Positions 1,239 to 63,531 of a DNA stretch of 64,000 nt are shown one piece after another. The notes beneath the pieces were generated by a model. The model searched no databases, was not told where the DNA came from, and was given only the letters and a program-made list of their open reading frames with translations. A program made the translations under genes and the position numbers. How positions within the stretch are numbered: position 1 is the first letter of the stretch; each line of letters opens with the position of its first letter. This stretch comes from an uncultured Gemmatimonadaceae bacterium (GTDB taxonomy: Bacteria > Gemmatimonadota > Gemmatimonadetes > Gemmatimonadales > Gemmatimonadaceae): NCBI GenBank assembly GCA_963829055.1, contig CAWHHI010000004.1, positions 320,001 through 384,000 of the forward strand. Direction: 5' to 3'.

Positions 1239-1835
1239 GTGTACGAGATCATCGTGATCGGAACGTCGTGGGGCGGGTTGAGCGCGCTCTCCACGATCAT
1301 CTCGACTCTGCCGTCCACGTTCGCGTTGCCGATCGTCGTCGTGCAGCACCGCAGCCCTGACGCCGCGGGATTCCTCGCTGAGTTGCTGCAGGGCCGCACC
1401 AGCCTGCGCGTGGCGGAGGTCGATGACAAGATGACGATCGCTGCCGGTCACGTGTACGTCGCTCCACCGAACTATCATCTGCTCGTCGAACGCGGCTTCT
1501 TTTCCCTCACCACGGATGCGCCCGTGCGGTACAGTCGCCCGTCGATCGACGTCACGTTCGGCTCGGTGGCCGACGCCTACGGCCGTTCCGCCATCGGCAT
1601 CGTGCTCACCGGCGCGAACGAGGACGGCGCGTTAGGCCTGAAGCGCATCGCCGATCGCGGTGGGTACGCCATCGTCCAGGATCCGGAGACGGCTGAAGGC
1701 GCGATGATGCCGCGCGCGGCGTGGCGCCTGGTGCCGCGAGCCCGCGTGCTGCCACTCGAGCTCATCTCCAGCCACCTGGTGACCGTCGCTCCGGCGCGTC
1801 CGCCAGCGCAGACGCGGCGGGCTCCGTTCGCATGA
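1239..1835 (+). CDS. cheB: CheB methylesterase, catalytic domain only (no REC)
   Basis: GTSWGG (Ser), VVQH (His), SRPSIDV and LTGANEDG (Asp); GTG start 2 nt after the cheR stop. Confidence 0.9.
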   Translation: MYEIIVIGTSWGGLSALSTIISTLPSTFALPIVVVQHRSPDAAGFLAELLQGRTSLRVAEVDDKMTIAAGHVYVAPPNYHLLVERGFFSLTTDAPVRYSRPSIDVTFGSVADAYGRSAIGIVLTGANEDGALGLKRIADRGGYAIVQDPETAEGAMMPRAAWRLVPRARVLPLELISSHLVTVAPARPPAQTRRAPFA

Positions 1836-3511
1836 CGGCGACCATCGGCGAAGCCACAACCGCGCCTCCGAGCGGGGCGCACGATGAGCAGGTGAACATC
1901 CTGCTCGTGGACGACCGCGCGGAGAATCTCCTCGCGCTCGAGGCCATCCTCGAGCCGCTCGGTGAGCGTCTCGTGCGCGCGCACTCGGGTGATGAAGCGC
2001 TGAAGTGCCTGCTGACCGAAGAGTTCGCGGTCATCCTGCTCGACGTGCAGATGCCCGGGCTCAACGGATTCGAGACCGCGGAGCTGGTCAAGTCGCGCGA
2101 ACGCACACGCTTCGTGCCGATCATTTTCCTCACCGCCATCAGCAAGGACGAGGCGTACGTCTTCCGCGGCTACTCGGTTGGCGCCGTGGACTACATGTCG
2201 AAGCCGTTCCAGCCCGATGTGCTCCGGTCGAAGGTGTCCGTGTTCGTGGACCTGTATCGCAAGCAGCGGCAGCTCAAGCGACAGGAGCGGTTGCTGCGTG
2301 AGGCGGCCGTGCGCGAAGTCGAGCTGGAGCATCGCGCACGCCTGCTCGCGCAGGAAGCGCGGACCGCGCAGATCGTCAGCACGGCGATGGACGCCATTAT
2401 CGTGCTCGACGCGGACCGCTACATCGTGATGTTCAATGGCGCGGCGGAGCGCATGTTCGGGCGCGCGGCGTCGGAAGTCATCGAGCTGTGCGTCGACGAG
2501 CTCATTCCCGACGAGGCGCTCGATCAGGCCCTAACGAGGATCAGTGCGGCACCCGCCGCGGACGCCGGCGTGCCGGCACTGCTGTCGCTGCAAGGCGAAC
2601 GCGCCGGTGGCGAACACTTTCCGTTGGAGGCGTCGGTCTCCTGCCTCGACGTCGGCGGTGAGCGCAGCTTTGCCATCATCGCACGCGATGTCACCGACCG
2701 CGTTCGCGCGGAAGAGGCGTTGCGCACGCAGGCGGTTTCGATCGCGGAGAACGCAGCCGAGCTGCGCCAGTTGAACGACGAGCTCCAGGAACGGCAGCAG
2801 GATCTCGAGCGGGCGATGACGGCGCGCAACCGGTTCTACGCGTCGATGAGTCACGAGCTGCGCACGCCGATCAACGCCATCATCGGCTACAACACGCTCC
2901 TGCTCGATCACATCTACGGGCCGCTCAACGAGAAGCAGACGCACGGCCTGCAGCGAACGCACAAGGCGGCGAACCATCTGCTCGAGCTGGTGAACGACGT
3001 GCTCGATCTCTCGAAGATCGAGGCGGGCAAGATCGAGCTCACCTTGCAGCCTGTGCCTTTTCCGGGCCTCATCGAGGATCTCTTCGTCACGGTCCGCCCA
3101 CTTGCCGATGAGCACGAGACTCGGCTGGAGCTCAGGGTCGATGGTGATCCCAAGGCGATCATCAGCGACCCGCGTCGCGTCCGGCAGATTCTGTTGAACC
3201 TGCTCTCGAACGCCATCAAGTTCGGCCGCGGCAAGCCGATCCAGGTCGACCTCACCCTTGGCGCCAGCGACCATATAGAGGTTGCGGTCACCGATCAGGG
3301 TGAGGGCATCGATCCCGATGACCTGCCTCGCATCTTCGATGAGTTCGTGCAGCTGTCGAATTCGCAGCAACTGGGCGGCACTGGGTTGGGCCTGCCAATT
3401 TCCAAGCGCCTCGCGACGCTTCTCGGCGGCGAGCTCCGCGTGTCTTCGGAGCGAGGCAAGGGAAGTACATTCCGGCTCACGCTGCCGGAGCGCATCGGCA
3501 TGACCGAGTAG
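1832..3511 (+). CDS. REC-PAS-HisKA-HATPase hybrid histidine kinase
   Basis: ILLVDDR/LLDVQMP receiver, PAS domain (DAIIVLD...FNGAAERMFG), MSHELRTP H-box, NLLSNAIKF, GTGLGL; ATGA overlap with cheB. Confidence 0.93.
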   Translation: MTATIGEATTAPPSGAHDEQVNILLVDDRAENLLALEAILEPLGERLVRAHSGDEALKCLLTEEFAVILLDVQMPGLNGFETAELVKSRERTRFVPIIFLTAISKDEAYVFRGYSVGAVDYMSKPFQPDVLRSKVSVFVDLYRKQRQLKRQERLLREAAVREVELEHRARLLAQEARTAQIVSTAMDAIIVLDADRYIVMFNGAAERMFGRAASEVIELCVDELIPDEALDQALTRISAAPAADAGVPALLSLQGERAGGEHFPLEASVSCLDVGGERSFAIIARDVTDRVRAEEALRTQAVSIAENAAELRQLNDELQERQQDLERAMTARNRFYASMSHELRTPINAIIGYNTLLLDHIYGPLNEKQTHGLQRTHKAANHLLELVNDVLDLSKIEAGKIELTLQPVPFPGLIEDLFVTVRPLADEHETRLELRVDGDPKAIISDPRRVRQILLNLLSNAIKFGRGKPIQVDLTLGASDHIEVAVTDQGEGIDPDDLPRIFDEFVQLSNSQQLGGTGLGLPISKRLATLLGGELRVSSERGKGSTFRLTLPERIGMTE

Positions 3512-3746
3512 CACGGAGAGTCGCAAAGCACCCGGGTTGCTGTTCGCGGCTCGTGCCGGCTTCTAGTTTTAGTTGTCGGTCGATAGCTGATAGCTTTTCG
3601 CCCGTTGATCGGCGAACATTCCACGCAATATTGGACACGCACGCGAATAGCCGGGGCCGGTCGCTTGGTCTCGACTGAACCAATCGCATTGTCCGACGGT
3701 ACCACTCGGCGAGTCCTTCGTCGCCATTGCGCGTGACCGGACGAAA

Positions 3747-4213
3747 GTGAATGTCACCAGTGTTCAGCGAGTGAGCGCATTGAAGGCTTTGTGTGTTGGT
3801 CGGCATCGCTATCTCAGCGATCACTTCGGGCGGTTCTTCCGGAAGCTCGGAGTGGACGCCGTCGAGCGTCGTTGGTGTGATGGATGCGATTGGATGCGGC
3901 GCGCGATCATCGGCCCGACATCGTGTTCTGTGAGTACGACCTGTCTGGCTACCGTTCCGCTGGAACCGTGGGAACGCGATCCATTTCTCTCGCGCTTGCC
4001 GGTGATCGCCGTGAGTCTCACGCGTCGCTCGGACGAGATGCATCTGCTCGACATCAACAACATCGCCGGCTTCTTCTATCTGCCGTCGCTCACCGAAGAC
4101 GACGCGCGTCAAGCTGTTGCACGTTGTGCGACCGAGCGCGGGGTATTCCTTGCAGTCATCACTGCAGTCGATCCGTCGAACGACCATCGCCCACGTCGTC
4201 GCCTCGCGCCTGA
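3747..4213 (+). CDS. Degenerate (pseudo-)receiver-like protein, frameshifted
   Basis: Stitching ORFs 3747 and 3884 gives ALCVGRH...RDHRPDIVFCEYDL...LPVIAVS...AGFFYLP, which has receiver-like spacing but lacks the canonical residues. Confidence 0.5.
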
Positions 4214-4380
4214 CGAGTGCTCACTCGGCAAGTCGTCGGCGTCGATTCGGCGGACATGCGGTTGCGCGTGCATCATGATTCATTATCATTCGCCCGCGTT
4301 TTCGTACGTTCGTGAACGCGCGCGACGCAAGCGGGATTCACGGGCGCGCGGTGCCGGCGACGGAGCAGGAACGGCGAGCT

Positions 4381-6165: not shown

Positions 6166-8940
6166 ATGTCCAGCGCCCCTATTACGAGCGTGTACAACGA
6201 CGGCTACATCGCCGAGGTCTACGAGGCGTACCGTCGCGACCCGGCGTCCGTCGACGAGTCCTGGCGCCAGTTCTTCCGCTTCGCGGAGCAGCTCGGTGGG
6301 TCCGCTTCGACGTCCACCACAGTTGCCGCGGACCCGGTCTACCTTCGAAAGGTCGCCGGCGCGGCGGCACTCGTCGACGCGATTCGACAGTACGGTCATC
6401 TCGCCGTGCAGCTCGATCCGCTCGGATCGTCGCCACCCGGCGCCGCTGAGCTGACTCCGGAGTTCCACGGCATCACCGAAGCCGACCTGCAGCTCGTGCC
6501 GGCGCTCGCGCTCGGCTTCGACGTCGGGACGGCCGCGGACGTCACCGCGCGTCTTCGCGATCTCTACTCGTCGACGATGGGCTTCGAGTTCGCGCACCTC
6601 GGCGAGGAGAACGGAGCGCGAGTGGTTCCGCGAGACGATCGAGCACGAGACAGCTCGCGCGATACCTAACGCCGGAAGAGAAGCGCGCCATCCTCGAGCG
6701 CCTGAGCGAGGTGGACGGTCTCGAGCGCTTCATCGGTCGCGCGTGGGTGAACATGAAGCGGTTCTCCATCGAGGGAACCGACGCGCTCGTGCCGATGCTC
6801 GACGTCGCTCATCGAGGAGTCCGCGCCGCGCGGGCGCGCGCGAGGTCGTGATCGGCATGGCGCATCGCGGACGCATCAACGTCCTCACGCACATCCTCGG
6901 CAAGCCGTACGCGACCGTGTTCGGCGAGTTCGACGGCAAGCACGCCGCCGCGTCCGCCGAGAGCGAGACGGGCGACGTGAAGTACCACCTTGGCGCTCGC
7001 ACGGAGCGCGACGCTCGCCGATGGTCGAACGGTCGGCGTGCAGCTCGTGCCGAATCCGAGCCATCTCGAGGTCGTGAATCCGGTGCTCACGGGCGTCGCG
7101 CGCGCGCGGCAGCGCGTGACGGCCGGCGAGCGCCTGACGAGTGAGCTCGACGCGCTCGCGGTGGTGCCCGTGCTCGTGCACGGCGACGCCGCGTTCCCGG
7201 GCGAGGGCGTCGTGGCCGAGACGCTGAACATGTCGCGGCTCCGCGGCTACACGGTCGGTGGCTCGCTGCACATCATCGTCGAACAACCAGGTCGGCTTCA
7301 CGACCGATCCGACCGACGCGCGCTCCACGCACTACGCGAGCGATCTCGCGAAGGGCTTCGAGATCCCGATCGTCCACGTGAACGCCGACGATCTGGAGGC
7401 GTGCATCGCGGCGGTGCGGCTCGGCGTCGCGTATCGCACGAAGTTCAGGAAGGACTTCCTCATCGATCTCGTCGGCTATCGTCGTCACGGCCACAACGAG
7501 GGCGACGAGCCGACGTTCACGCAGCCGACGCTGTACGCGACGATCAAGGCGCATCCCACGACGCGGCAGGTGTGGGGCGAGCGGCTGGTGCGCGAAGGCG
7601 TCGTGACGCGGAGGACGTGCAGGCGGCCGAGCGCGACGTCGCGCAGCAGCTCGAGGAGACGTACGACGAGGTCGAAGAAGGCGACGCACGGAGGACGATC
7701 ACGAGATCGAGTGGCGACAAGGCGCCGCCTCCGACGGATCGTCGAGACGGCAGTGCGCGCCGAGCAGCTCGTCGCGCTGAACGAACAGCTGCTGGCCTGG
7801 CCCACGGGCTTCAGCGCGCATCCACGGCTCGCGAAACAGCTCGAGCGCCGTCGCGACGCGATGGGCGAAGCTGGCGGCATCGACTGGGGGCATGCCGAGT
7901 CGCTCGCGTTCGCCTCGCTGCTCGCCGAGGGGACGTCGGTCCGGCTGTCGGGCCAGGACGCCGAGCGCGGAACGTTCTCGCATCGTCACGCGGTGCTGCA
8001 CGACCCGAACACCGGCCAGACGTTCACGCCGCTGCAGCACCTGCCTAACGCCAGCGGGCAGTTCGAGATCTACAACAGCCCGCTGTCCGAGACGGGCGTG
8101 CTCGGCTTCGAGTACGGCTACAGCACCGCGGCCGACGATACGCTGGTGCTCTGGGAAGCGCAGTTCGGCGACTTCGTGAACGTCGCGCAGCCGATCATCG
8201 ACCAGTTCATCGCCGCCGACCGCGCCAAGTGGGCGCAGGATTCCGGCGTCGTGCATGCTGCTGCCGCACGGCTACGAAGGGCAGGGGCCGGAGCACTCGA
8301 GCGCACGTCTCGAGCGCTTCCTCCAGCTCTGTGCCGACGGGAACCTGCGCGTCGCGTATCCGTCGCACGCCGGCGCAGTACTTCCACATTCTGCGTCGTC
8401 AGGCGAAGTCGGATTCGCGACGTCCGCTGATGCTGATGCAGCCCAAGAGCCTTCTGCGCCTTCCGCAGGCGGCGTCGCGGCTCGAGGATCTCGCGAACGG
8501 CCGATTCGCGTCGGTGATCGACGATCAGATCGGTCGGTGATCGGCGCGATGACGTGCAGCGCGTCGTGTTCTGCACCGGCAAGATGTTACTACGATCTCA
8601 ACGGCGAAGGAGCGTCCGGCGAACGTCGCGATCGCGCGCGTCGAGGAGCTGTATCCGTGGCCGGCGCGAGCAGGTCTCGCGCATCGTCGACCTCTATCCG
8701 CAACGTCGACCGAAGTCGTCTGGGCGCAGGAAGAGCCGAAGAACATGGGCGCGTGGAGCTACGTGTGCGCCGCGGCTGCGTGCCTGCACGGGCAACGCGA
8801 TGCTCATTCGCTACATCGGGCGTCCGGAGCGCGCGAGCCCGGCGGAAGGGTACCTGACGTCGCATCAGGAAGAGCAGGCGCGCATCGTCACCGATGCGCT
8901 CGAGGTGCCAGCGAAGCGAAAGGCGGCAGCACGGTCGTAA
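6166..8940 (+). CDS. sucA: 2-oxoglutarate dehydrogenase E1 component, frameshifted
   Basis: [90 protein letters not shown] and [10 protein letters not shown]. Confidence 0.93.
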
Positions 8941-8971: not shown

Positions 8972-11700
8972 GTGCGGTCAGGCGTTGAACGCTCGGCGGT
9001 GCGTCTGCCGCCGTCGGCAGTGCTGTTGCTCTTGGCGCGCTCACGGCGCCGCCTGCCCTCCCGGGCGCAGGGCATCCCGCGACTCGACGAGGCGATCTCG
9101 GGCCTGTCCGTTCCCATGCGTGTGCTCGTCATCGCCGCGCACCCGGACGATGAGGACACGCAGCTCATCACGTGGCTCGCGCGCGGGCGGCACGTCGAGA
9201 CGGCGTACCTCTCGCTCACGCGCGGCGACGGCGGTCAGAACCTGCTCGGCAACGAGCTCGGCGATGCGTTAGGCGCCATCCGCACCGAGGAGCTGCTCGC
9301 GGCGCGACGCATCGATGGCGGCCGCCAGTACTTCACGCGCGCGTACGACTTCGGTTTCTCGAAGACGTCCGACGAGACGTTCCGGCACTGGCCGAGGGAC
9401 TCGATCCTCCGCGACGTCGTGACGGTCGTGCGGTCGTTCAAGCCGCACGTCATCGTCGCGCATGTTCTCCGGCACGCCGCGCGACGGCCACGGGCACCAT
9501 CAGGCGTCGGGCATTCTCGCGCGCGAGGCGTACGACGTCGCGGGTGACACGGTGCGATTCCCGGCGAGCGTCACCGCATGGGCTGGCGCCGTGGACGCCG
9601 CTCAAGTTCTATCGCGGTGCGTGGTCGGCGCAGCGGCGACAGACCCGGTGCTGCGCATCAACGTCGGCGAGTTCGATCCGATGCTCGGGCGCTCGTACGC
9701 CGAGATCGCGGCGGAGAGCCGGTCGCAGCACAAGTCGCAGGCGTTCGGGTCGCTCCAGCCGAAGGGCGCGCGATTCACGCAGGTGCGTCGCGAGGCGACG
9801 CGCGTGAACGAGTCGCAGGCGCCGGGAACGGAGAAGTCGCTGTTCGACGGCATCGACACGACGTGGGCGCGGTTCAGGACGTCCGACAACGTCGCCGGAG
9901 GTCGCGCGCGCTCGTCGATTCGCTTCCGCGGCCAGTTGCGGCAAGCGCAGGCGTCGCCGTACCTCCGCGACGCCGGCCTCGGCCGTGCCGGCGCTGCACG
10001 CGCTGTGCTGAGCCTGGCGCTCCGTGCGCACGACGCCGACAGCGGCATCTCGGCGCGTCCGGGTCGCCTGACGCCGCGGCGAGCGCGAACGTCGGGCGAC
10101 TTGCCGATCTGGACGAGGCGCTCCGCATCGAGCAGAACGGTGAAGCGCGCTCGCGCTAGCGAGCGGGGTCGCGGTCGAGGCGAGGCGGAGCCGCGCGATC
10201 AGTCGCGACGGCGACAGCGCTCGCCGCTCACAGCTCACGGTCTACAATCGCGGCACGGTCCGGTCGACGCAAGCCCGGAGTCCGTTCTACATCGTGCGTG
10301 CCGAAGCGTGGCCGCTCGCTGAGCGGCGGAATGCGCAGCGCTCGCCGTGCTCGGGCGACGAGCACAGCTACCATTCTCCCCGACAGCGCGCGCACGTGGC
10401 GCGCTGGGTCGTGTGCGCGCCGAGCGGCTCGGCGCACTCGCCGTACTGGCTGAGTCGGACGGCGCGCCGGGCGACATGTTCCGGCACGCGCGAGCCTGGT
10501 CGAAATCCGAGAGCGCAGGCGACGGCGGGCGCAGTCGTGTGGGTCCGTCCAGTTGCCGGGTGACCCGACTGCTCGGCAAGCCGGTTCGACATCGACGACG
10601 CCGATCGTGTATCCGCTACGCCGATCCGCTGCGTGGCGATGTGAGTCGCCCGCTGGCGTTACGTGCCCGAGGTGTCGGTGACGCTCGATCGGGCGATCGA
10701 GTACGCGCCCGCGCGCACGCCACTCGTCAGGCAGCTTCGCGTGGAGCTCCGCTCGGCCGCCACGACGTCGCGGGATGTTCGCGTCTCGCTGCAGCTCCCC
10801 GCCGGCCTTCGCGCCGACTCGGCCACGCGGATCGGTGACGCTGCCGGCGTACGACGCGGTGCGCAGTGCGACGTTCACGGTGCGCGGTGAGCTTCCGGCC
10901 GGGTCGACACACGATCTCCGTCGTCGCGGAGTCGAACGGGAAGCGCTTCACGCAACGGCTACACGGCGATCGAGTACGATCACATTCGCCCGCAGCGGCT
11001 GTATCGCGATGCGGCCGTCGCGATCGAAGCGGTCGATCTCAAGGTGCCGCCGACGCGGTCATCGCGTACATCCAGGGCGTCGGCGACAACTCGGCCGCCA
11101 TGCTGCAGCAGCTCGGGTTGCGCGTCACGACGCTCAACCCGGCCGACATCCCGAAGACGGATCTGTCCCGGTACAACGCGATCGTCGTCGGCACGCGCGC
11201 GTACGAGTCGAACGACGCGCTCGTGGCGAACAACGCGGCGCTGCTCGACTACGTGAAGCAGCGGCGGGACGATGGTCGTGCAATACGGGCAGACGAGATG
11301 ACAGCAGCCCGGGCATCATGCCGTATCCGATCACGCTCGCGCGGCCGGCGGATCGAGTGACGGACGAGGCGAGTCCGATCCGCATGCTCGACCCGAAGGC
11401 GCGGGTGCTGACGTACCCGAACGCGATCACGGACGCGGACTTCGCGGGCTGGATTGCAGGACCGTTCGCTGTACATGCCGCGCACGCATGCCGCGGAGTA
11501 CGCCGCGGTGCTCTCGACGAACGACCCGGGCGAGCACACCTAACGATGGGGCGATCCTGGTGGCGAAGTACGGCGCGGGGACGTACGTGTACACGACGCT
11601 GGCGTTCTTCCGTCAGCTGCCTAACGGTGTCCCGGGCGCGGCGCGCCTGTTCGTGAACCTGCTGGCCGCGAAGGCGCCGGATAAGACTGTGGTGCCGTGA
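8972..11700 (+). CDS. Secreted PIG-L/LmbE-family deacetylase with C-terminal extension, frameshifted; start approximate
   Basis: AAHPDDED, LTRGDGGQN, RTEELLAARRIDG, HGHHQASG, SRSQHKSQ, YDHIRP and YTTLAFFRQLP. Confidence 0.85.
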
Positions 11701-11931: not shown

Positions 11932-13593
11932 TCACGCTGGAACGCGCTCACGACCAGTCCGACGATCACCACCGTCACCGCGCCGATCACGTTGTGCCAG
12001 AGGAACGCGACCTCCGGCGGCCGAACGTTCACCGCGCCAACCACCGAGATGCCCGCGATGCAGCCCGATGAACGCGCCCGTGCGCACGTGACCCTCGGAA
12101 TCATCGCCAGCAGGAAGACGCCGAGGATCGAGCCGTAGAAGAACGAGCCGAACCGGTTCACGACCTCGATCAGCGAGCCGAGGCTCACCGCGTACGATCG
12201 CGATGATGCACGCGAAGACGCCCCAGATCACCGTCGCGATCTTCGACGCCCGGACATACGCGGCGTCCGGCGCGTTAGGCCGCAACCACCGGCGGTAGAA
12301 GTCGATCACCGACGCCGTCGCCAGCGAGTTGAGCTCGCCGGCCACCGCCGACATTGCGGCCGCCATCACCGCCGCGATGAAGATCCCCGTCAGACCCACG
12401 GGCAAGGTCGAACAGCACGAAGTGCGGGATGATGTAGTTCACATCCCTCGACGACTCGCCGGTCACGCGCGCCGCCAGCGCCAGCGCCTCCGTGCGCACG
12501 TCCTCGACGCGTTTCTCGGCCGATGCGGAACGCTGTCGCGCGTGGCCGACGTCTTCGCGCGCGGCGATCGCCACGTGCGGCCGCGTCACGTTGCGCGAGT
12601 GCGGCGCCGTATTGCGTCGCCAGCGCCTGGTACTGCCGCCGGCTGCGCCTCCCGCACGCGACGGTCGTGTGTCGGGTTGAACAGCATCGGCGGCGGCTGG
12701 AACAGGTAGATACACGAACACCAGCACGCCGACGAGCAGCACTCCGGCCTGAAGCGGGATCTTCCAGTACGCGCTGATGAGCAGCGAGCTTCGCGCCTCG
12801 TCCACGGACTTCGCCGTGAGGAACCGCTGCACCTGGCTCTGATCGGTGCCGAAGTACGACAGCATCAGGAACGTGCCGCCAATGAGCCCCGACCAGAACG
12901 TGTACGTGCTGCGTGATGTCGAACGAGAAGTCGAACACCCGCAGCCGCCCGACAGCGCCGGCGACGTGGAGCGCCTGCGTCGGGGCTCACGGGCAACTTG
13001 AACAGCACCACCGCGATCACGGCCGCGATCGCGGTCACGACGAGCACCATCTGCTTGACGTCGGCCCACGTGACCGCCTGTACGCCGCCGACGATCGTGT
13101 AGATCACGGTTGGGATTCCCATGATTGCGACCGACCAGCCCGACCGGCCAGCCGAAGATCGATGAGAACACGACCGCGGGCGCGGCGAGAATCGTCCCGC
13201 ACGACATCCCGCGCGAGAGCAGAAACAGGAATGCGGTGAGCGAGCGGGTCTTCGCGTCGAACCGGCGCTCGAGGAATTCATAGGCCGTGAACACGCGCGC
13301 GCCGTGCAGGAACGGCACGAGCGTCACGCCGAGGATCACCATGGCGAGCGGCAGTCCGAAATAGAACTGGACGAACCGCAGCCCGTCCGTCGCGCCCTGG
13401 CCCGGTCGTCCCGATCATCGTGATCGGCCGAGAGCTGGGTCGCCATCACCGAGAGCCCGACTGCCCACCACGGAAGGCTCCGGTTGGCGAGCAGGTAGCC
13501 CTCGATCTCGGTGGAGCGCTTCGTTCGGCGGATGCCGTCAATCCCCACGTACGCGAGGTAGACGACGAGGATCGCCCAGTCGAGAGAGTGCAC
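11932..13593 (-). CDS. Sodium:solute symporter (SSS family), frameshifted
   Basis: [56 protein letters not shown] and [16 protein letters not shown]; 3' end uncertain. Confidence 0.9.
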
Positions 13594-16183: not shown

Positions 16184-17568
16184 CTACGCCGTCGCCGGCG
16201 GACTAACGAACTGCTCGAGCCCCACGCCCAGCATTAGCGTCGCCAGCACGACAGCGGCCGACGTGAAGAACGGAACGCCCGTGCCGAGGTGATCGTAGGC
16301 GAAGCCCGCCCACAGCGGCGCGATGATGCGCGCGACACCGCCGAACGTCTGCTGCACGCCCATGTACAATCCTCGCTCGCGCGGTGGAGATCACCCGCGA
16401 GAGCAGCGCCGTCACGCACGGGAACGTGAACGCGGTGCCGAGCGGGATGAACGCGACGGCGAGCGCCAGCACCGGCAGCGATCGCGCGAGCGGCATCCCG
16501 CCCAGTCCGATCGCCAGCAGCACCACACCGAATCCGCGACAGGCGCGCCTCGCCGAATCGATCGACCGCCTTGCCGAGCAGCAGCACTCGCGTGAACACG
16601 GAGATCGATCCGATGTACATGAAGAAGTAGCTGATCGTCTGCTCGGTCACCTGGTAGCGATCCGCGAGAAACAGCGCGAGCACCGCGGTCACACCCTGAA
16701 ACGCGCCCATGGCGATCGCGTAGATCCAGATGAGCCGCGACGCGGGCTCGCCGGAATGCTCGAGCACTCGCAGCACGGCCTCGCGCGACGAGCGCGGCTT
16801 CTGCGGCGTCGGATGCTGCGCCTCGCTCACCGCGGCGCGACTCGCGCAGGTAGTGCCACGCGAACGCCATGTTCACGAGGCAGAGCAGCGCCGCGAGCAG
16901 ACCGGGCATCGCGTGACCCACCGCGTGCAGCCCCGCAACGTCACCGCCGCCCAGGTTGCACACCTTGTTGCCTAACGTGATGGAAAAGGCGCCGAGCACC
17001 GGGCCGAACGCGACGCCGAGGTTCGTGGCGGCGGAGAGCCAGCCGAGCCCGCGCGCGCGCTGATCGGGCTCCACCGAGTCCGCGACGTACGCCTGGATCA
17101 CGCCGACCGTGCCGCCGCCCGCGCCCTGGACGATGCGCGAGATGAACAGCATCGCCAGCGAGTTGGCGAAGCCGAAGATCACGTACGCGATCGCCGACGC
17201 GCCGAGCGCGACGAGCAGGGCGGGGCGTCGCCCGAATCGATCCGAGAACCGCCCCCACACCGGCGCGCTCACGAGCTGCGCGACCGTGAACGTCGACACG
17301 AGCAGCGCGACCACGGATGCCGATACCGAAATGCACGCGCGCCGATGTTGAACCCTTCGCCGCCCAACCTGCGCGCGTAGAACGGAAGGATCGGCACGAC
17401 GATCAGCAGCCCGACCATGTCGAGGAATGCCGTCGCCATCAGCACCATGAGCTTCGCCGGAATCTTCCGAAGCTCGCGGCCCAGTGTGTACAGGAGTCCC
17501 ACCGCGAGCGCGCCGAGAACGATGCGCACGGCGGGGTGCTCGAGTGATGTCGCGATGTCGAGGACCAT
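16184..17568 (-). CDS. MFS transporter, TetA/DHA1-like, frameshifted
   Basis: FLDMVGLLIVVPILPFYA, WGRFSDRFGRRP (motif A), RIVQGAGGGTVGVIQAYVAD and GVAFGPVLG. Confidence 0.88.
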
Positions 17569-19756: not shown

Positions 19757-21399
19757 GCGGCGGTTCCGCTCGCGCCGGTCATGTAGGGTCCGAGGACTTC
19801 CGCGCTCGCGTCGCTGGCCGGGCAGCGTCACGACCATGCGGCCGCCGTACATGACGGTCACGCGATCGGAGAGCGCCAGAATCTCCACGAGGTCCGCAGA
19901 CACGAGCAGAATCGCCTTCCCCTCGGCCCGCGCGCGCCGCAGTTGGTCGTGAATGAACTCGATTGCGCCGACGTCCACGCCGCGCGTCGGCTGCGCCGCG
20001 ATCAACACCGTGAAGTCGCGCCCCATCTCGCGGGCGATGACGATCTTCTGCTGATTGCCGCCCGACAGCGCGCGCGACGGCAACGACTCGTCAGGCGGCC
20101 GGATGTCGAACGTCTGGATGCGACTCGCCGCGTTCGCGGCGATGCGCGCGTGATCGAGCACGCTGGCGCCGCCCGTGAACCGATGCTGTTGACCGAGGAT
20201 GAGATTGTCCGCCACCGAGTACTCGAGGACGAGCCCGCGGCGGTGGCGATCTTCGGGGATGTGCGAGAGCCCCGCGTCGGCGCGGCGCGCGCACGTCGCG
20301 CGTCGGTGATGTCGTGCTGCGTGCCGACCGAGGTCGACGATGCTGATGGTGCCCGACGCCGGCGCGCGAAGTCCGGTGATGGCTTCGATCAGCTCGGTCT
20401 GTCCGTTGCCCTCGACGCCGGCGATGCCGAGGATCTCGCCGCGCGCGATCGGTGAACGAGACGTTGTCTACCTCGTTAGGCTTGCGGCGGGAGGCGACGG
20501 TAAGGTTTGAAACGCCTGAGAGCGGGAACCGGGAACCGGGAAGCGGGAAGCGGGGCTGCTCGCAGCCCGCTGCTTGCAGCTCCGTCCCGGCTTCCCGCTT
20601 CCCGCTTCCCGTTCCAACGGCGACACCATCGATCGCGAGAACGACATCTCGGCCCACCATCATCCGTGCGATCGATCGCGGCGTCGCGTCGGCCGTCCTC
20701 ATTCGTCCCACCGTTCGCCCCGCGCGCATCACCGTGATCGTCTCCGAGATCTCGATCACCTCGTCCAGCTTGTGCGTGATGAGGATGACCGTATCCGCCG
20801 TCGTCGCGGAGACGACGCAGCACCTTCCACAGCTCACTCACCTCCGGTGGCGACAGCACCGCCGTCGGCTCGTCGAGAATCGAGGATCTTCGCGCCGCGG
20901 TAGAGCGTCTTCAGAATCTCGACACGCTGCGCTTCGCCGACCGAGAGCTCCGAGACGAGCCGCGACGGGTCCACTCGCAAGCCCCGTGCGCTCGCTCAGC
21001 GCACGCACTTCGCGCTCGGCGGCGCTGAGATCGAGCGAGAGACCGCGTCGCAGCTCGCGGCCGAGGATCAGATTCTCCGCGACCGTGAGCGTGGGCACGA
21101 GCATGAAATGCTGGTGCACCATGCCGACGCCGGCGTCGATCGCTTCGCGCGTCGTCCAGCCCGTGACGTCGCGCAGGGCGCCGCCGGAGGTCGCGACTTC
21201 GACCGACGCCGCCGTCGGGCGGATACATGCCCGCGAGCACCCGCATGAGCGTCGACTTGCCGGCGCCGTTCTCGCCGACGAGCGCGTGAATCTCGCCCGA
21301 CGCGACCTCGAGGTCCGCGCCGGCGTTCGCGACGACCGGCCCGAATCGCTTGACGACGCCCGTCATCCGAACCGCGGTCGATCGGCTCATCGCGATCAT
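19753..21399 (-). CDS. Two-domain ABC ATPase (CUT2/nucleoside type), frameshifted
   Basis: [51 protein letters not shown] and [10 protein letters not shown]. Confidence 0.92.
20521..20615. repeat. Inverted heptamer arrays inside the ABC ATPase linker
   Basis: GGGAACC GGGAACC GGGAAGC GGGAAGC ... GCTTCCC GCTTCCC GCTTCCC GTTCC. Confidence 0.8.
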
Positions 21400-23748: not shown

Positions 23749-23812
23749 TGAGACGTGGCTACGGGAAGTCGTTAGGTCAGCGAGCCGACGAGATTGGCGG
23801 CGGACGCGGGCT

Positions 23813-25123: not shown

Positions 25124-25246
25124 CTAACGATCGCCGCTCATCCGAGCGTCGAGCGAGCGTGGAGCGAGTGTGCGGATGTCAGCGGAGCGACGGATATGTG
25201 AACCCCGATTCGGCAGTATCGGAACGCGCAGAACCACCGAAAGGTC

Positions 25247-43556: not shown

Positions 43557-43661
43557 AGGCTTACAGCGTTCCTCCGCTCTCGGCGCCGCACGGCACCGGT
43601 CCTGCTTTACAGGGTGACGTATTCCCTAACGTCTACAGTCCGCAGAGAGAAGGGAGGATAG

Positions 43662-48244: not shown

Positions 48245-49267
48245 TTAGCGAGGGACTGCTACCGCCCGACGACGGCGAGGAACGTCGACGCGCATGATCA
48301 GGTACGCCAGCACGAGCAGGATGGGCGTACTGTGGCGCATCGCGAAGCGACGGACGCGCTCGAACACGTTCTCCCGGTAGGCGGTGACCGGTTCGCCGGC
48401 GCGAAGTGCGGCGACGTCGCGCGCGAGCGCCATCACGTCCGCATACCGATGCTCCGGTTCGTGCGGCCATTGCCCTGTCGAATGATCGCCTGGAGCGGAC
48501 GAGCGGGCGTCGCGCGCACTCATCCGCTGTCCGACGTGTCGGTACGATCGCCGGTGCATCGCACAGATCGCGCAGGATCGCGCCGATGGCGTAGACGTCC
48601 GCGCGCGCATCGACGAGCGCGGGATCGCCAGCGCCTGCTCGGGCGCCATGTAGCCCGGTGTCCCGAGCACGACGCCGTGGCCGGTCGTTGGCTCGATGTG
48701 CCGTCCGCCGCGACGACGGCGGCGTCCACGCCTAACGACATCGCGGCGTCGCCGATCATCTTCGCGACGCCCCAATCCATCACCAGCACCTCGCCGAATG
48801 GGCCGACCATCACGTTCTGCGGCTTGAGGTCGCGATGGATGACGCCGTGCGCGTGCGCGAACGCGACCGCCTCACAGATTCGCTCGACGATCCGCCAGTC
48901 GCTCGGTCAGACGGTGATGCGGGCAGCGCGTCCAGCGGGCGCCGCGCACGAGCTTCATCGCGTAGAACGCTCGTCCGTCCGCGAGCGTGCCGACGTCGTG
49001 GACGGGCACGATCCCCGGATGTTCCAGCTGCGCGAGCGTGCGCGCCTCACGCGATCATCCGCGACGGCGACATCCGGCGAGACTTCGGGCAGACGGATGA
49101 CCTTGAGCGCCACGTCACGCGCCAGCTCGCGATCGCGCGCGCGGTACACGGTGCCCATGCCGCCTTGCCCGACGCGCTCGATGATCTCGTACTTCGTGCC
49201 GCTCAGGTCCGGCGCGTCGGCGGCGTCACGCAGCCGACGGAGCGCGGCATCGGACAAGCCCGCTCAT
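48245..49267 (-). CDS. Hanks-type Ser/Thr protein kinase with a single C-terminal TM, frameshifted
   Basis: [51 protein letters not shown] and DVYAIG. Confidence 0.9.
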
Positions 49268-52176: not shown

Positions 52177-53330
52177 CTACTTCAGCTCGAGATTGTGCTT
52201 GCTGACCAGGTCCATGTACGTCGCGTAGCCACCCTTCGCGGACTCGGACACGAACGAATCGACCGTCTGCAGCAGCTGTGTGCTGAAGTAGCCAGGTACG
52301 CTCTGCGGATGGGACCCGTAGAAGCCGCCGCCGAAGTAGCTGCGGATGATGACGCTGCGCGAATCATGAGGCAGCGTTCGGACGCTCGCCGCGAAGGCGT
52401 CGAACGAGCCTTCACGCATGAGGTAGAACTCCACGTTCGACACGTACAGCGCCGACAGCGTCTCTCCCCGCTCCGTCATCACCTTGCCGATCTCGCGCAG
52501 TGCGTGGTCCCCGGCGAGGTTGCCGACGACCGGCACGATGAGGTTGCGGCCCTCGAGCGACTTCACGAACTGGAAGTCGTCTTCGTGGCGAGGTACGACA
52601 GCTGCTTCCCAGCCAGGTCATGCTCGAGCAGGAGCGATCGCAGCGTCGGATAGTAGGGGCGCGGCGCTCGGCCCAGACTGGTGAACTGCAGTTCCAGTCC
52701 GGCCTCGAAGAACGCCTGGTGGATGTGATCGATAGTCTCGAGCTCCGCCGGCGTCAGCGGAATCCCGTAGCGTTTCACCTTCGTGCGAATCATCGCTCGC
52801 GACGTCTCGTACTGGTCGGCGTCCGCGGGCGTCTTGTCGATGAGCTCGACGACGTCGGCGATACTCTTGCGCTTCCACTTCGCGACGTCGTTAGGTATCG
52901 CCCGGCCGGTGAGCAACGCCAGGTACTCCACGCGGTCGTGCGCCATCTCGAACAGCGCCTTGAACAGCAGATGCTGCAGCAGATTGTCGCGACGAATGTC
53001 GACGATGAACGCGATGCGTGGCCGAATCTGCGCGATGTACGAGAAGCTCTGATCCGGACCAACGCCGATGTACGCGCCGCCGGTGACCCCAAGGCGTCTC
53101 ATGGCGCCGAGCACGTGAAGGTACGACGACTCGTTGGAAATGAGGTTGTCGGAGTCGAAGAATCCGCCGGGCTCCGAGATGCGCGCGCTGAGTGCCGCGA
53201 ATGCCGAGTCGCTGAGTGCGGGCGCCAGCTGTTGCGTGGTGTACGCCGTCGCGTGCGCCGCGTCCTGCTGGTACGCGGAGACCGGCAGCGCCGCGAGCAG
53301 CAGAGCACCCACGACCGATTTCGTCAGCAT
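52177..53330 (-). CDS. Exported hypothetical protein, one frameshift
   Basis: Signal peptide; SEPGGFFDSDNLISNE, GAYIGVGPDQSF and LYVSNVEFYL; two ORFs join near 52570. Confidence 0.75.
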
Positions 53331-53919: not shown

Positions 53920-54459
53920 GCGATACCGGCCGGCGCGTTAGGCGTCCGCGGGCGTCGGGCCGGCGCGTCGGCGCCGCCGCGGCGGAGCAACAGCAGTGCG
54001 AGCAGGATCGCGCCGCACGTCACGCCGACGTCCGCGAGGTTGAACGTGTAGAATCGCCAGCCGCCGACGCCGATGTCGATGAAGTCGACGACGCCGCGAT
54101 ACGTGCCGCCTGGCGACCGGAATCGGTCCATCACGTTGCCGATCGCGCCACCGGCGACGAGCGCGAGCGCCGTCGCCTGGACGCGGTCCTTCGGCGGCGT
54201 CGTGCGGTAGATGCTGGCGAGCACGGCGAGCACGCCTAACGCCAGTAACGAGAAGCCCGACGCGGGAATGCTCGCCGAGCGACACGGAGAACGCGGCGCC
54301 GGTATTGTACGCGAGCGTGAAGCGAACGACGTCCCCCACTACGGGGTGCGGGACGTGCTCGGGGACGAGATGCTGCTCCGCCAGCCGTTTGGTCGTGCAG
54401 TCGGCGAGGACGAGCAGAAACAGGAGCGGCCAGAAGGCCTTGGCTTTGCTGGTCAGCAT
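53916..54459 (-). CDS. lspA: Signal peptidase II, one frameshift
   Basis: [24 protein letters not shown] and FNLAD. Confidence 0.92.
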
Positions 54460-55956: not shown

Positions 55957-56947
55957 CTATCCCTGTCGGTGCTTGCGCATCCAGTCCTCGACGAACGTCG
56001 GCAGAAACATGTTGTCGGCGATGGCCGCGACTTCCTCTGCCTCCTTCCACGCCTGCTCGAGCAGTGCGAGCTCGCCCTCGAGGGCGCGTCGTTCACTGTC
56101 TTCGTGCGCGGCCATCTCGAGCGCGAGGCGCAGCGACTCCGGCAGTGCCGAGATCTTCGCTTTCGCGCGGCTCATTGCCATGCGAGCGGCGACGTCGAAG
56201 AAGCGCATCGGGTCTGGTACGCGCTCGATCAGCGAGACGGCCTCCGTCACGCGATCGCGCGAGCCGCCGAATCGATTGAGCTGCGGCAGGAGCTTCCCGA
56301 GCGCCTGAATCGCGGGGTCTCCCTCGAGCGTCACGATCTGTTTGCGATAGCGGAAGGCCGAGTCGCCAGCCGGTCTCGTCGCTCGTCACGAGCTGCAGTC
56401 GGCTCAGGTGCTTCCCCTTCACGGTGAGCTCGCCGACGTCGGGGACGGGAAGGCGTGCGACGACCCGCTCGGGTGAGCCTTTGACGATGCGCTCGCCCAT
56501 CTGGCCGATGAGCCATCCGAAACCGCCGATGCCGACGCCCGCCGCGGCGCCGCCGACGACGAGCGCGCCTAACGCGCCGAGCCCGATGCCGACGCGGATC
56601 AGGGCGGTGCGGCGTCGGCGACCGAGCTGATCGCCGTACCGCCAGGCGGCGAATTCGGGGCGTTCGGGGCGACCGATGCGCACGAGCTCCAGCCCGGACG
56701 GGAGTCGGGCGAGACCGATCTGGTCGGTGGAGACGCGGAGTCGGGTGTCACGATAGAACCGCTCGCACTCCTCGATGGCTTCCCATCGTTCTTCGGTCGG
56801 CGTCAGGTTCCACTGGCGGCAACGACGGCAAACGACCCAGAGCCGGCCGCGTTCGGGATCGAAGGCGAGACGCCGGCCAACGGGAAAATGCTCGATGGTG
56901 TCGTTTCCTTCGAGCGCGCTGTGGCAGAAGATGCAGGTAGAATACAT
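55957..56947 (-). CDS. Hypothetical membrane protein with an N-terminal Zn-ribbon, one frameshift
   Basis: CIFC...CRRC, one Gly-rich TM, and C-terminal LALEMAAHEDSERRALEGELALLEQAWKEAEEVAAIAD. Confidence 0.75.
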
Positions 56948-60783: not shown

Positions 60784-61742
60784 GTCGGTACGCCGCCATC
60801 GAGAATCGTGGCCAACTTGGCGGCGTCGATGTTGCCGCCCGATACCACGCACACGACCTTGCCGCCGATGTGATGACGCAACGCCGCCGCGAGGGCGGCG
60901 CCTCCCGCGCCCTCTGCCACGACGCGAGCGCGCTCCGCGAGCAGGCGAACCGCCGCAGCCACGTCTTCGACGCTCGAGACGAGCGCGCCAGTCAGGAGCG
61001 TGCTGACGAGTGGCCACATCTCCGCGAGTACGCCCATCCCACCAATGCCGTCGACGAAGCTGGGCGTGCGCTCCACCCGAATTGGAGCGCCGGCCGCGAG
61101 CGCTGACGTGAGCGGCGTGGCGGTGTCGACTTCGCATCCGAAGACTCGCGCGTTAGGCGCCAGCGCCCGAACGGCCGTCGCGATGCCGCTGCTCAGACCT
61201 CCGCCACCGAACGGGACGAGGACGGTGTCCACGTCAGGCAGGTCTTCGACGATCTCGAGGCCGATCGTTCCATTGCCGGCGACGACTGCGGGATCGGATA
61301 CCGGATGCACGAACAGGCCGTCGATGCCGGGATACGAATGGTCCACGAGCGTCTGCCACCAACGGTCGTAGGACACCTTCACGACGCGTCCGCCCAGCCG
61401 CTCGATGGCGTCGATCTTCGTGTGTGGCGCGTGGTCCGGCACGACGACGGCGCAGGGCACGCCGAAATGCCGAGCGGCCCACGCGACGCCCTGCGCCATG
61501 TTGCCGGCGCTCGCTGTGTACGCGCCTTGCGCGAGACGCTCGGATCCGGCGAGCAACATGGCATTCGCGGCGCCGCGGAGCTTGAACGAGCCGATAGGCT
61601 GGAGGTTCTCGAGCTTGAGCCAGATCTCACCCGCCGCGCCCGGAACGTCGAGCCTAACGAGCGGCGTGCGCACCGTGACGCCAGACAGTCGCTCGCGCGC
61701 AGCTCGGACGTCCGCGATCGTGATCTGGTCAGGCGTCGGCAT
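60780..61742 (-). CDS. Threonine/serine dehydratase (PLP fold II, no regulatory domain)
   Basis: [31 protein letters not shown] and SGGN; intact ORF. Confidence 0.9.
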
Positions 61743-62769
61743 CGCGGAGACCGCCCAGGTCCACCCAGCTGCCGGCACCCGTGGCGACGGCGCGATCATA
61801 GATCCGTCGTGCGGCCGCGACGTCCTCGATCGCGAGGCCTAACGACTTGAAGACCGTGAGCTCGTCCGCCGACCGTCGGCCGACGATGCGTGGTGGGGCG
61901 ACGAGCAATTCACCGATCTCGCCCACGATGTGCTCGTCGCCGACGAGCCCCTCGCGCTTCGGCACCAGGAAGTCGCCCGCTTCGTTGATGGCGGACTCGC
62001 GGCGATCGACGTAAAAACGCGCCGCGGCGACCGTCGCCGAGTCGAGCTCACGGGCGGTCGCGAGGCTCGCGCCGACGGCGTTCACGTGTGCGCCCGGCGC
62101 GAGCCACTCTCGCGAGAGTACCGGCTCGCGCGAAGACGTGACAGTGCAGACGACGTCGGCACCTTCGACTGCCTGACGAGCGGTGGCGCAGACGACGATG
62201 TTCACTCCGTTCGCGCCATTGGCTTTCGTCCGTTCGGCGAAGTGGCGCGCGCGTTCGCCCGATCGGCTCCAGACGCGAACGTCGCGGAATGGACGAACGA
62301 GGCTCAGCGACTCGAGGTGCGTCGCCGCCTGCACCCCGGCGCCGAGTAGGGCGAGCGTGCTCGATTCAGGACGCGAGAGCAGACGCGTCGCGACGGCGGT
62401 GACCGCCGCGGTGCGGAGTCCGGTAATGGTGCTTGCGTCGATGATCGCGATGAGGCGCCCGTGTTCGGTGTCGAACAGCAGCACGGCGCCCTGATGCGAG
62501 TCGTATGGCGTGGCGTCGTTGCCGGGGAAGACCGTGATGACCTTCGCGCCCAACGCCGATGGTTGGTCGAGCGCCGCGGGCATGACCGCGAACGCGTTGC
62601 GCCCGTCGTGCAGTCGCACGACCTGGCGAAGCGGCAGGATGGCGCCGCCCTGCGCGAGCGTGCGCAGCGCGTCGGTCATCGCCTCGATGCATTCGGACAT
62701 CGGGAGGAGCGCGATGACGTCGCGGTGCCCGACGAGCAGCGTACCTGTGTGAGCCGGTGGGGTCGACAC
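61729..62769 (-). CDS. Ornithine cyclodeaminase/mu-crystallin family protein
   Basis: MPA...GAKVITVFPGN, ITGLRTAA, GAGVQA, HVNAVG and FKSLGLAIED; intact ORF. Confidence 0.92.
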   Translation of the reverse strand: MSTPPAHTGTLLVGHRDVIALLPMSECIEAMTDALRTLAQGGAILPLRQVVRLHDGRNAFAVMPAALDQPSALGAKVITVFPGNDATPYDSHQGAVLLFDTEHGRLIAIIDASTITGLRTAAVTAVATRLLSRPESSTLALLGAGVQAATHLESLSLVRPFRDVRVWSRSGERARHFAERTKANGANGVNIVVCATARQAVEGADVVCTVTSSREPVLSREWLAPGAHVNAVGASLATARELDSATVAAARFYVDRRESAINEAGDFLVPKREGLVGDEHIVGEIGELLVAPPRIVGRRSADELTVFKSLGLAIEDVAAARRIYDRAVATGAGSWVDLGGLRDADA

Positions 62770-62777
62770 GCGATTCT

Positions 62778-63284
62778 CTAGAGTTGGCGGACGCCGGACA
62801 TGAGCACGCCGCGGAGCACTTCGATGGCTTCACCGGCGCTCGCCGACGCGCGCACTACGTCGGGATCGAGGATGCGGAAGAACTTCGCGGTGGTTTCGTC
62901 GGGGCGGAGCAGCACGACGGGCTTCTTGGCACGGATCGCGAGCGCGACCTCGGATGCGGTCCCGGCATTCATGCCGCACACGACACAGGCATTCGCGGAC
63001 AGCGCGATGACGGCGTTGCGCGCTTCGCCGAGGCCGGTCGCGAGTACGACGTCGATGGCGGGCGATGCGCCGAGCGTATCAGGCGTTGGCAGGAGTCCGA
63101 CGGTGAGACCGCCGGCTGCGCGCGCGCCCTTGGCGGCGGCGCCCATCACGCCGGCCACACGACCTCCGGTCAGCACGCCCCAGCCGGCCTTCGCGACCAA
63201 CTCGCCGATGAGCGTCGCGTCGTCCATCTCTTTCTGCCCGGCGCCTTCGCCCGGTCCGAGCACACCGATCAGGATCCGTCGCAT
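62778..63284 (-). CDS. LOG/SLOG-family (TIGR00725-like) nucleotide-binding protein
   Basis: IGVLG, LTGG..GVMGAA.KGA, VGLLP, TGLGEARN and GTASE. Confidence 0.85.
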   Translation of the reverse strand: MRRILIGVLGPGEGAGQKEMDDATLIGELVAKAGWGVLTGGRVAGVMGAAAKGARAAGGLTVGLLPTPDTLGASPAIDVVLATGLGEARNAVIALSANACVVCGMNAGTASEVALAIRAKKPVVLLRPDETTAKFFRILDPDVVRASASAGEAIEVLRGVLMSGVRQL

Positions 63285-63325
63285 ATCGCGGATGCTAACG
63301 ATACGAGGACGGTCACGCGACCACT

Positions 63326-63477
63326 TGTCATTCCGAGCGAGCGAAGCCGGGTGCCCACCGCAGGTGGGCGCATGAGGAATCGCGATCGTACAGGTAGAGA
63401 GCCCTCTACCCGGAACCGCACGATTCCTCATGCGCCCAGAGGGCACCCGCGGCCTGCGGCCTCCGCTCGGAATGACA
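63326..63477. repeat. GTCATTCCGAG...CTCGGAATGAC palindromic repeat, copy D
   Basis: TGTCATTCCGAGCG/CGCTCGGAATGACA; shares GAGGAATCG, GAGCCCTCTACCCG and CGATTCCTC with copy A. Confidence 0.85.
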
Positions 63478-63531
63478 GCGCCTCGACCCACTTGGCTCGC
63501 TCGGCACGACCACCCGTTAGGCGTCGCGAAT

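Follow-up and report, generated by a model that had tools for sequence, protein, structure and literature searches.

A strand-symmetric signature octamer in the genomes of some Gemmatimonadota and its match to integron attC ends

The DNA uptake sequences (DUS) of Neisseriaceae are 10-12-mers that have ComP as their receptor and occur in genus "dialects", and the uptake signal sequence (USS) of Pasteurellaceae consists of a 9-bp core with AT-rich flanks. To our knowledge, experimental proof of uptake-sequence-like genome words is confined to these two families. Other densely repeated words include the highly iterated palindrome HIP1 of cyanobacteria, which is linked to methyltransferases, and the strand-polarised Chi and FtsK-orienting polar sequences (KOPS), with a polarity of about 75% and above 85%, respectively. 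Here we describe the asymmetric octamer GCCTAACG (reverse complement CGTTAGGC) in the genome of an uncultured Gemmatimonadaceae bacterium, G000, an assembly of 7,784,024 bases in 20 contigs with a GC content of about 66.7%. The word was noticed, as the heptamer CCTAACG, in a 64-kb stretch comprising positions 320001-384000 of contig C4 (G000:C4:320001-384000), hereafter the window. It is a lineage-specific signature word that acts at the DNA level and is present in a patchy set of genera.

An exact search of the window found 40 copies of CCTAACG, 22 on the plus and 18 on the minus strand, reproducing every coordinate listed in the initial annotation of this DNA. Only 2.34 copies on average (sd 1.5, largest 7) were present in 100 dinucleotide-preserving shuffles, so the excess is bigger than the rough estimate of 7 chance copies had implied. 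Thirty of the 40 copies extend to GCCTAACG, and the other ten begin with A (7) or C (3). Of the one-mismatch variants also listed, those at 28955, 44327 and 48160 were recovered, while the sequences near 33354 and 58235 differ from the octamer by more than one mismatch.

The whole genome contains 6,391 copies of CCTAACG (3,154 on the plus and 3,237 on the minus strand). The octamer is present in 5,004 copies in 7.78 Mb, 2,457 as GCCTAACG and 2,547 as CGTTAGGC, with about 65, 51 and 128 copies expected per strand under Markov models of order 1, 2 and 3. It exceeds the order-1 and order-2 expectation 38-50-fold and is the highest-ranked 8-mer under all three orders; ranking by the maximal-order model failed to single it out because its sub-words are also enriched. 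Alignment of the 6,391 heptamer copies revealed that the base before them is G in 78%, A in 13%, C in 7% and T in 2%, and the full word is thus an 8-mer, with a core longer than the heptamer first noted. Farther flanks are nearly information-free, showing codon-derived 3-base periodicity only; the copies are therefore not fragments of a longer repeat.

The single-mismatch spectrum of G000 defines how strictly the word is read. Exchange of position 2 or 7 for any other base yields variants at only 0.17-0.44 of expectation, and the spectrum gives 0.27 for GCTTAACG and 0.39 for GCCTAAGG. Variants at the edges are enriched: ACCTAACG 13-fold, GCCTAACA 10-fold, CCCTAACG 5-fold and GCATAACG 4.4-fold. 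In effect, CCTAAC forms a strict core, bordered by more tolerant edge bases. Depletion of one-off variants at several positions is what conversion of near-matches into the word would yield if the latter were a by-product of biased methylation or repair, similar to HIP1 or to Dcm/Vsr action at CCWGG, and a horizontally mobile methyltransferase would fit the patchy distribution. We regard this origin as improbable, since the three substitutions are equally depleted at positions 2 and 7, with no preference for T, and the word is no palindrome. Moreover, C5-methyltransferase (PF00145) and Vsr (PF03852) were found in none of the eight word-rich genomes; both families were detected only in the word-poor genomes G012 and G028, and Vsr also in word-poor G007. 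The lack of matches to these enzymes, together with the equal depletion of substitutions, weakens the methylation/repair option. Like HIP1, GCCTAACG is an 8-base word that recurs within genes at very high density; unlike HIP1, it is asymmetric and is accompanied by neither a C5-methyltransferase nor Vsr in the eight word-rich genomes.

To follow the word through coding sequences, 6,812 open reading frames (ORFs), covering 77% of the genome, were called by GC3 periodicity. Outside the ORF bodies lie 1,694 of the 5,004 octamers. Within ORFs, 1,535 sense and 1,787 antisense copies were observed, compared with 107 and 60 after synonymous-codon shuffling in each ORF (20 shuffles; largest 122 and 76). 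This 14-30-fold excess over an amino-acid-preserving null is conservative, because shuffling retains codon usage already inflated by the word. Enrichment thus survives both kinds of null model against which the initial annotation had proposed to count the word genome-wide. All four stop-free frames are used: xGC-CTA-ACG (617 copies) and xxG-CCT-AAC-G (914) in sense, xCG-TTA-GGC (1,250) and xxC-GTT-AGG-C (529) in antisense orientation; the two stop-reading frames, GCC-TAA-CG and CGT-TAG-GC, contain none. TTA accounts for 1.7% of Leu codons (3,038 in total), and 41% of all TTA codons lie within xCG-TTA-GGC, consistent with the initial claim that codon bias is overridden in several frames. The octamer spells 22% of [APST]-Leu-Gly and 44% of Pro-Asn-[VADEG] contexts. 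The Pro-Asn dipeptide is 1.36 times as frequent in the ORFs as expected from amino-acid composition, indicating that protein sequence is also mildly bent. Copies are evenly spread along the length of ORFs. TAA or TAG within GCCTAACG terminates 387 of 6,803 ORF calls (5.7%), a count that indel errors could inflate; in DNA fetched from other genomes, the word ends 32 of 353 ORFs in eight word-rich and 0 of 196 in three word-poor ones. The excess acts on DNA, not on protein.

No G000 contig shows a strand bias, and neighbouring octamers have the same orientation in 2,589 cases and the opposite one in 2,395. Chi, KOPS and the architecture-imparting sequences (AIMS) are likewise over-represented asymmetric octamers, but they are strongly replichore-polarised, while GCCTAACG splits 46.6/53.4 relative to the G-rich strand: in regions with clear GC skew it reads on this strand in 953 of 2,045 copies (46.6%), and CGTTAGGC in 53.4%. 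The weak skew, seen also as a Spearman rho of -0.19 across 137 bins, is what a polar replication or repair signal would have in its favor. Its direction, however, is that expected from the G/C content of the word itself, its size is far below the values for Chi and KOPS, and orientation runs are at chance. A search for single-orientation domains gave 21 runs against about 36 windows expected. A polar signal is thus very improbable; near-symmetry excludes polarity of the Chi/KOPS type, bearing out what had been argued from the near-equal strand split in the window.

Spacing of the octamers is more even than random, with gaps of 200 bp or less making up 4.4% compared with 12.3% under a random process. 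Close inverted pairs are scarce (30 within 100 bp). Three stretches of 31-50 kb in G000 are free of the word: C6:5441-55038, C11:1-44055 and C6:591809-623330 (L177-L184). All are located at contig ends and carry ordinary housekeeping genes, among them those for FtsK (47% identity) and DAHP synthases (54-56%), which have distant second copies elsewhere in G000. These stretches are probably foreign or mis-joined DNA.

The closest named relatives of the acetate kinase encoded in the window are Gemmatimonadota metagenome-assembled genomes (MAGs). Five of 80 loci examined are rich in GCCTAACG, and the public names of four of these five (L001, L017, L019 and L024) include short-read assembler tags. 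Synteny with the window was found in the genomes G001, G002, G004 and G005, at a nucleotide identity of 75-85%. At aligned sites, 14 of 21, 18 of 24, 11 of 30 and 12 of 16 copies, respectively, are kept in these relatives (55 of 91 comparisons overall), compared with 27, 28, 23 and 27% of control 7-mers; these are small samples and the four relatives are not independent. One small additional aligned fragment keeps one of three copies. Within the word, identity at third codon positions is 82-89% in three relatives compared with 71-73% elsewhere, and 71% compared with 69% in G004. Where a site is not shared, the relative usually differs by 2-3 bases. The sites thus show both maintenance and turnover, and the proposed check in orthologues reveals sharing above the level of controls.

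The same comparison bears on the possibility that the word is a base-calling or assembly artefact or consists of dispersed fragments of a mobile element. Many genes of G000 are indeed split by frameshifts. However, the word occurs at similar density in 13 other genomes and in short-read-tagged contigs, often at orthologous positions, and is therefore no base-calling artefact; the initial annotation had likewise argued against an indel artefact. As for a mobile element, no single neighboring word is common enough to be the source, and the flanks are not conserved. Either origin appears most improbable.

The distribution of the word is patchy. All six other genomes of the genus of G000 contain 2,501-5,112 copies, and G014, from a different genus, contains 6,360 copies in 5.1 Mb, while most sister genera have 6-50. 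Among 401 Gemmatimonadota genomes surveyed, eight have at least 1,000 copies, all of them from one order: G000, three of four genomes of genus g40, G299 (g43), G318 and G159 (g37), and G206 (g73), the last belonging to a second family of this order. The fourth g40 genome, G288, has 66 copies. Nine further genomes of the survey have 400-900 copies, and outside that one order no Gemmatimonadota genome stands out. Counted here are four unpublished genomes (G013, G078, G198 and G117), which are not rich in the word and do not underlie any conclusion. The edges of the word form "dialects", YGCCTAAC in G299 and G292 and CCTAACG in G000, G014, G010 and G318. In the former pair the 5' G is present in 98% of copies and preceded by Y, and position 8 is G in only 60% in G292; in the latter four, G occupies position 1 in 68-78% and position 8 in 83-92%.

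Other words were looked for in the relatives as well. In G206, the first 20 kb of each of contigs C1-C5 (L197-L201) contain a 9-12-base word around AAGACTCAAGAC at 40-100 times the expectation; its 9-mers are present in 13-16 copies in 94 kb. No alternative hyper-abundant word was found in 20-100-kb samples of the word-poor relatives G007, G008, G009, G016 and G018. In G004, a further enriched word proved to reflect local tandem clusters of (AGCTATC)n; in G004:C4:45001-85000 (L126-L127), inverted pairs of these clusters occupy five places in a 15-kb span, at about 49.6-64.3 kb of the joined stretch. They resemble a small repeat element, and AGCTATCAGC is present in 61 copies in G000.

The octamer is identical to the R'' box (RYYYAAC) plus the following G of attC sites of integrons in G000, G021, G299 and G235, and it meets the R-box pattern RYYYAAC/GTTRRRY as GCCTAAC/GTTAGGC. 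The identity is clearest in the word-poor genome G021, where on contig C95 the word occurs every ~500-600 bp, in 64 of 65 listed places on one strand. This contig carries a classical cassette array, its sites of about 90-100 bp starting with GCCTAACG, containing complementary inner boxes and ending with GTTAGGC; 19 of 23 attC sites of G021 anchored on their inner boxes begin with the octamer. About 30 cassettes of 500-600 bp are present in G021:C95:1-32000 (L081/L082), and large arrays were also seen in word-poor G021 C43 and C80, G019:C3 and G374:C2. In G299 and G235, attC sites were predicted by a fold-based finder of low sensitivity, which also detected sites in the G021 array, chosen as control. 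Judging from these sequences, GCCTAACG is the common attC end in these soil bacteria, and its identity with this end is unlikely to be due to chance. The identity is new relative to the literature searched, which contained no description of GCCTAACG, the text matches to its letters being primers only.

The picture may extend to another phylum, reached via locus L021 (title Acidobacteriota). None of 401 genomes there has a symmetric excess of the word, and the largest count, 299, is about that of the control; this tally includes the unpublished genomes G611, G488 and G513. Several genomes have one-stranded counts, 6/168 in G629 and 100/5 in G831, along with 9/73 and 58/3, which suggests that the word marks cassette arrays in that phylum too.

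Dispersed copies of the word, nonetheless, are not attC sites. They share with attC the R'' box, the next base and the GTT cleavage triplet, and differ from it in lacking L boxes, a hairpin partner, conserved flanks and polarity, and in occupying conserved codons of housekeeping genes. Hairpins flanked by the word number 32 in G000 and 15 in a reversed-genome control, hardly any excess. The exceptions are about a dozen attC-like sites on contig C20 (GCCTAACG...CGTTAGGC, 50-130 bp, plus strand, C20:191802-207188), left of an integron integrase gene, intI (C20:208041-208958, minus strand; TIGR02249, 265.7 bits, at the cut-off). Further scattered attC-like sites were noted on C20 at 119251, 119424, 163143, 173525 and 183882 (region 119000-209200; L185, L186). 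The cassettes face the 3' end of intI, a layout unlike the usual divergent one. We considered intI as the driver of the word and rejected it because the gene is not co-distributed with word abundance: TIGR02249 integrases scored above the cut-off in 18 of 31 relatives, both word-rich and word-poor. Word-rich G002, G004 and G396 yielded no intI above the cut-off, a negative limited by MAG incompleteness, and word-poor G288 has two copies above the cut-off and a third just below. In this respect, too, the dispersed copies differ from integrons, whose integrase does not track them.

GCCTAACG could also be bound by a chromosomal protein, with weak selection preserving the individual sites. Such a protein might be a nucleoid or segregation factor, or a tyrosine recombinase of the integron-integrase or Xer type, for which the double-stranded R box would be a landing, decoy or cassette-acceptor (attG-like) site. 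Letter-for-letter agreement with R'' plus G in four genomes and the one-stranded counts in the other phylum point in this direction, and even spacing and tight specificity at positions 2-7 fit as well. A preprint (bioRxiv 10.1101/2022.09.11.507474) also describes integrases as inserting cassettes into double-stranded attG sites of genomes, the core of which is GWT, and GCCTAACG contains GTT. However, intI does not track the word (G288 is poor with intI, G396 rich without a match), the dispersed copies have no attC structure, and solitary cassettes were rarely encountered. GTCTAAC, which occurs as an ordinary R'' variant in the arrays, is depleted 5-fold genome-wide, and with 5,000 redundant sites, selection on any single one would be very weak. 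We therefore consider a protein site possible, though rather unlikely.

An uptake-type molecular drive, similar to that behind DUS and USS, may instead maintain the word, and of the options named in the initial annotation this one appears to fit best, methylation/repair having been weakened and a protein site being retained at the lower rank given above. We hold this explanation tentatively, as having somewhat less than an even chance. Excess, strand symmetry, clade restriction with dialects, maintenance at orthologous sites and absence from foreign-looking DNA, as in uptake sequences, are all observed for GCCTAACG, and import genes are present; from there we infer biased uptake and the identity of the receptor. 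A directional process would hold the word at about one copy per 1.5 kb, reading double-stranded sequence whatever the gene, frame or direction of transcription or replication. A candidate surface or periplasmic competence component would prefer DNA bearing the word, and homologous recombination of the preferentially imported alleles would result in a high and even density in the core genome, at the same time repairing decayed copies. Since the word is the R'' end of attC, the receptor may have acquired its specificity on integron cassette DNA or through selection for such DNA.

The pattern resembles known uptake systems in several respects. As with DUS, a single short asymmetric word recurs on both strands about once per kb, with dialects at its edges; it is lineage-restricted, is maintained across the core genome and is lacking from foreign DNA, and type IV pilus and ComEC/DprA genes are encoded. 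As with USS, most copies lie in genes in several frames, distort codons and mildly peptides, and are evenly spaced. In contrast to DUS, the word is of 8 bp rather than 10-12, and no ComP-like receptor was identified, one pilin having been tested; in contrast to USS, the host is GC-rich, and the word holds stop codons on both strands, supplying 5.7% of ORF stops.

Genes for DNA import are present in G000: intact ComEC, DprA and three PilT-family ATPases scored above the cut-off, and pilins were also matched. An HHH_3/ComEA-like match adjoins a cluster with a pilT-family ATPase (C12:490840-494424) and is a candidate DNA-receiving module by sequence similarity. Since the import genes occur equally in word-poor relatives, this machinery is permissive rather than diagnostic. 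ComEC was tried as a discriminator of word-rich genomes and rejected, being equally present in word-poor ones. A pilin of G000 (C16:947580-947852) was considered as a ComP-like receptor; full-length relatives of it occur in word-rich and word-poor genomes alike, and its gene looks frameshifted in G000. The initial annotation had proposed to look for co-distributed competence genes or an orphan methyltransferase; competence genes are present but not co-distributed with the word, and C5-methyltransferase was not found in the eight word-rich genomes.

Several observations weigh against uptake. The PilQ-like secretin of G000 scores 258.5 bits, below the cut-off of 284, and the narrow ComEA model TIGR00426 has no match in this genome. 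In the family, ComEC is present in 105 of 111 genomes, word-rich and word-poor alike, and pilin matches in 111 of 111 (both tallies include the unpublished G013 and G419). Searches for competence genes, intI and methylases revealed no gene whose presence tracks the word. Inverted pairs serving as terminators, known for DUS, are absent, as is the extended, helically phased flank of USS. Finally, an arbitrary uptake word should not match an integron R box, so that a plain DUS model leaves this identity unexplained.

A bolder possibility is that the recognition step is tuned to integron cassette ends, most plausibly as the specificity of a transformation receptor or, alternatively, of an integrase-related protein. 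Biased recombination would then have written the attC R box thousands of times into core genes as a side effect of harvesting cassettes from the gene pool of the soil. Tuning of this kind would also account for the rise of one and the same word in unrelated phyla. By way of context, one report (PMC12614218) links natural transformation to cassette recombination. We rate this tuned recognition as unlikely, and give a similarly small chance to some explanation other than those considered here. In the literature searched, no paper on DNA uptake sequences in Gemmatimonadota and nothing on uptake sequences in metagenomes was found; no transformation system is reported in this phylum, the papers merely co-mentioning natural transformation, as judged from the listing.

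The individual copies in the window illustrate these features; retention refers to the aligned sites in G001, G002, G004 and G005. In the frame GCG-TTA-GGC, GCCTAACG at 1630..1637 (-) lies in the CheB methylesterase ORF 1236-1832(+), as the initial annotation had stated. The same xCG-TTA-GGC frame is used at 9267..9274 (-) in ORF 8858-9544(+), kept in G004; at 11538..11545 (+), a copy of ACCTAACG in ORF 11430-11612(-); at 11619..11626 (+) in ORF 11616-12227(-); at 37400..37407 (+) in the Big_2-domain ORF 37115-37834(-); at 48730..48737 (+) in ORF 48523-48906(-), the 7-mer being kept in G005, G001 and G002; and at 61837..61844 (+) in the ornithine cyclodeaminase ORF 61732-62829(-), where relatives have 2-3 bases different. 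The copy at 36935..36942 (-), described initially as a CGT-TAG stop, ends no called ORF and likewise reads xCG-TTA-GGC, in ORF 36652-36963(+); it is the copy at 37053..37060 (-) that supplies a TAG stop, to ORF 36324-37058(+). The frame xxC-GTT-AGG-C is represented at 27806..27813 (-) in the TonB-receptor barrel ORF 27315-28655(+), kept in G004, G001 and G002; at 39302..39309 (+) in ORF 38244-40427(-), kept in all four relatives; at 43865..43872 (+) in ORF 43629-43892(-), kept in G005, G001 and G002; and at 47253..47260 (-) in ORF 46843-47475(+), kept in G005.

In the frame xGC-CTA-ACG, a 7-mer copy within CCCTAACG at 2529..2536 (+) lies in the hybrid kinase ORF 1697-3508(+), and ACCTAACG at 25122..25129 (+) in ORF 24968-25198(+). 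The frame xxG-CCT-AAC-G is read at 8043..8050 (+) in the sucA fragment 7228-8427(+), kept in G004; at 52889..52896 (-), a copy of ACCTAACG in ORF 52566-53453(-) whose 7-mer is kept in G005, G001 and G002; at 54234..54241 (+) in ORF 54211-55794(+), absent from relatives (at least 3 differences); and at 63515..63522 (-) in ORF 62781-63557(-).

Other copies in the window supply stop codons. ACCTAACG at 6664..6671 (+) terminates with TAA the ORF fragment 6157-6666(+), the sucA N-terminus. TAA stops are also provided by the octamers at 12273..12280 (-) to ORF 12278-13414(-); at 16970..16977 (+) to ORF 16724-16972(+), kept in G002; at 23860..23867 (-) to ORF 23865-24884(-), kept in G004, G001 and G002; at 26688..26695 (+) to the ORF fragment 25983-26690(+), the TonB-receptor plug, kept in the same three; at 34507..34514 (-) to ORF 34512-35078(-), kept in G005, G001 and G002; at 43333..43340 (+) to ORF 43024-43335(+), kept in all four; and at 53936..53943 (-) to ORF 53938-54459(-), where TTA is TAA on the minus strand. 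TAG stops come from CCCTAACG at 43624..43631 (+), ending ORF 43629-43892(-), and from GCCTAACG at 45716..45723 (-), ending ORF 45230-45718(+), with one base different in relatives.

Outside called ORFs lie octamers at 20474..20481 (-), kept in G004; at 28669..28676 (+), with the 7-mer kept in G001 and G002; at 40526..40533 (+), kept in G005, G001 and G002; at 42886..42893 (-), with 2-3 bases different in relatives; and at 61652..61659 (+), kept in all four. The edge variants outside ORFs are ACCTAACG at 23770..23777 (-), 26951..26958 (+; kept in G002) and 28882..28889 (+), and CCCTAACG at 25630..25637 (-). The octamer at 56567..56574 (+) is located immediately upstream of an aldo/keto reductase ORF and is kept in all four relatives, and that at 61151..61158 (-) at the upstream edge of the acetate kinase ORF, its 7-mer being kept in G005.

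The gene contexts named initially were also found. Positions 211-3508 of the window hold a chemotaxis cluster, with CheR at 211-1233, the CheB methylesterase domain at 1236-1832 and a hybrid response-regulator/PAS/histidine kinase at 1697-3508; sucA is present as fragments, and a TonB-dependent receptor (susC) adjoins a SusD homologue. Adjacent ORF fragments at 6157-8427, 25983-28655 and 31376-33013 correspond to split sucA, the TonB-dependent receptor and the nadB/nadA region, a pattern expected of indel errors in a long-read assembly. Beyond a frameshift, the wrong frame often continues up to a stop supplied by GCCTAACG.

Gemmatimonadota are widespread in soil but have been little studied, and an unambiguous case in this phylum would mean that self-preferential DNA exchange, or another genome-wide reader, is more common than assumed. 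In practice, the word could mark foreign or mis-binned DNA in these MAGs and thus serve to assess bin purity. Since G299 is word-rich and complete in four contigs, a culture may exist for testing. If the identity with attC is causal, it would open an experimental route into cassette recognition and exchange in soil communities, and if recognition is indeed tuned to cassettes, natural transformation and integron cassette capture would be mechanistically tied.

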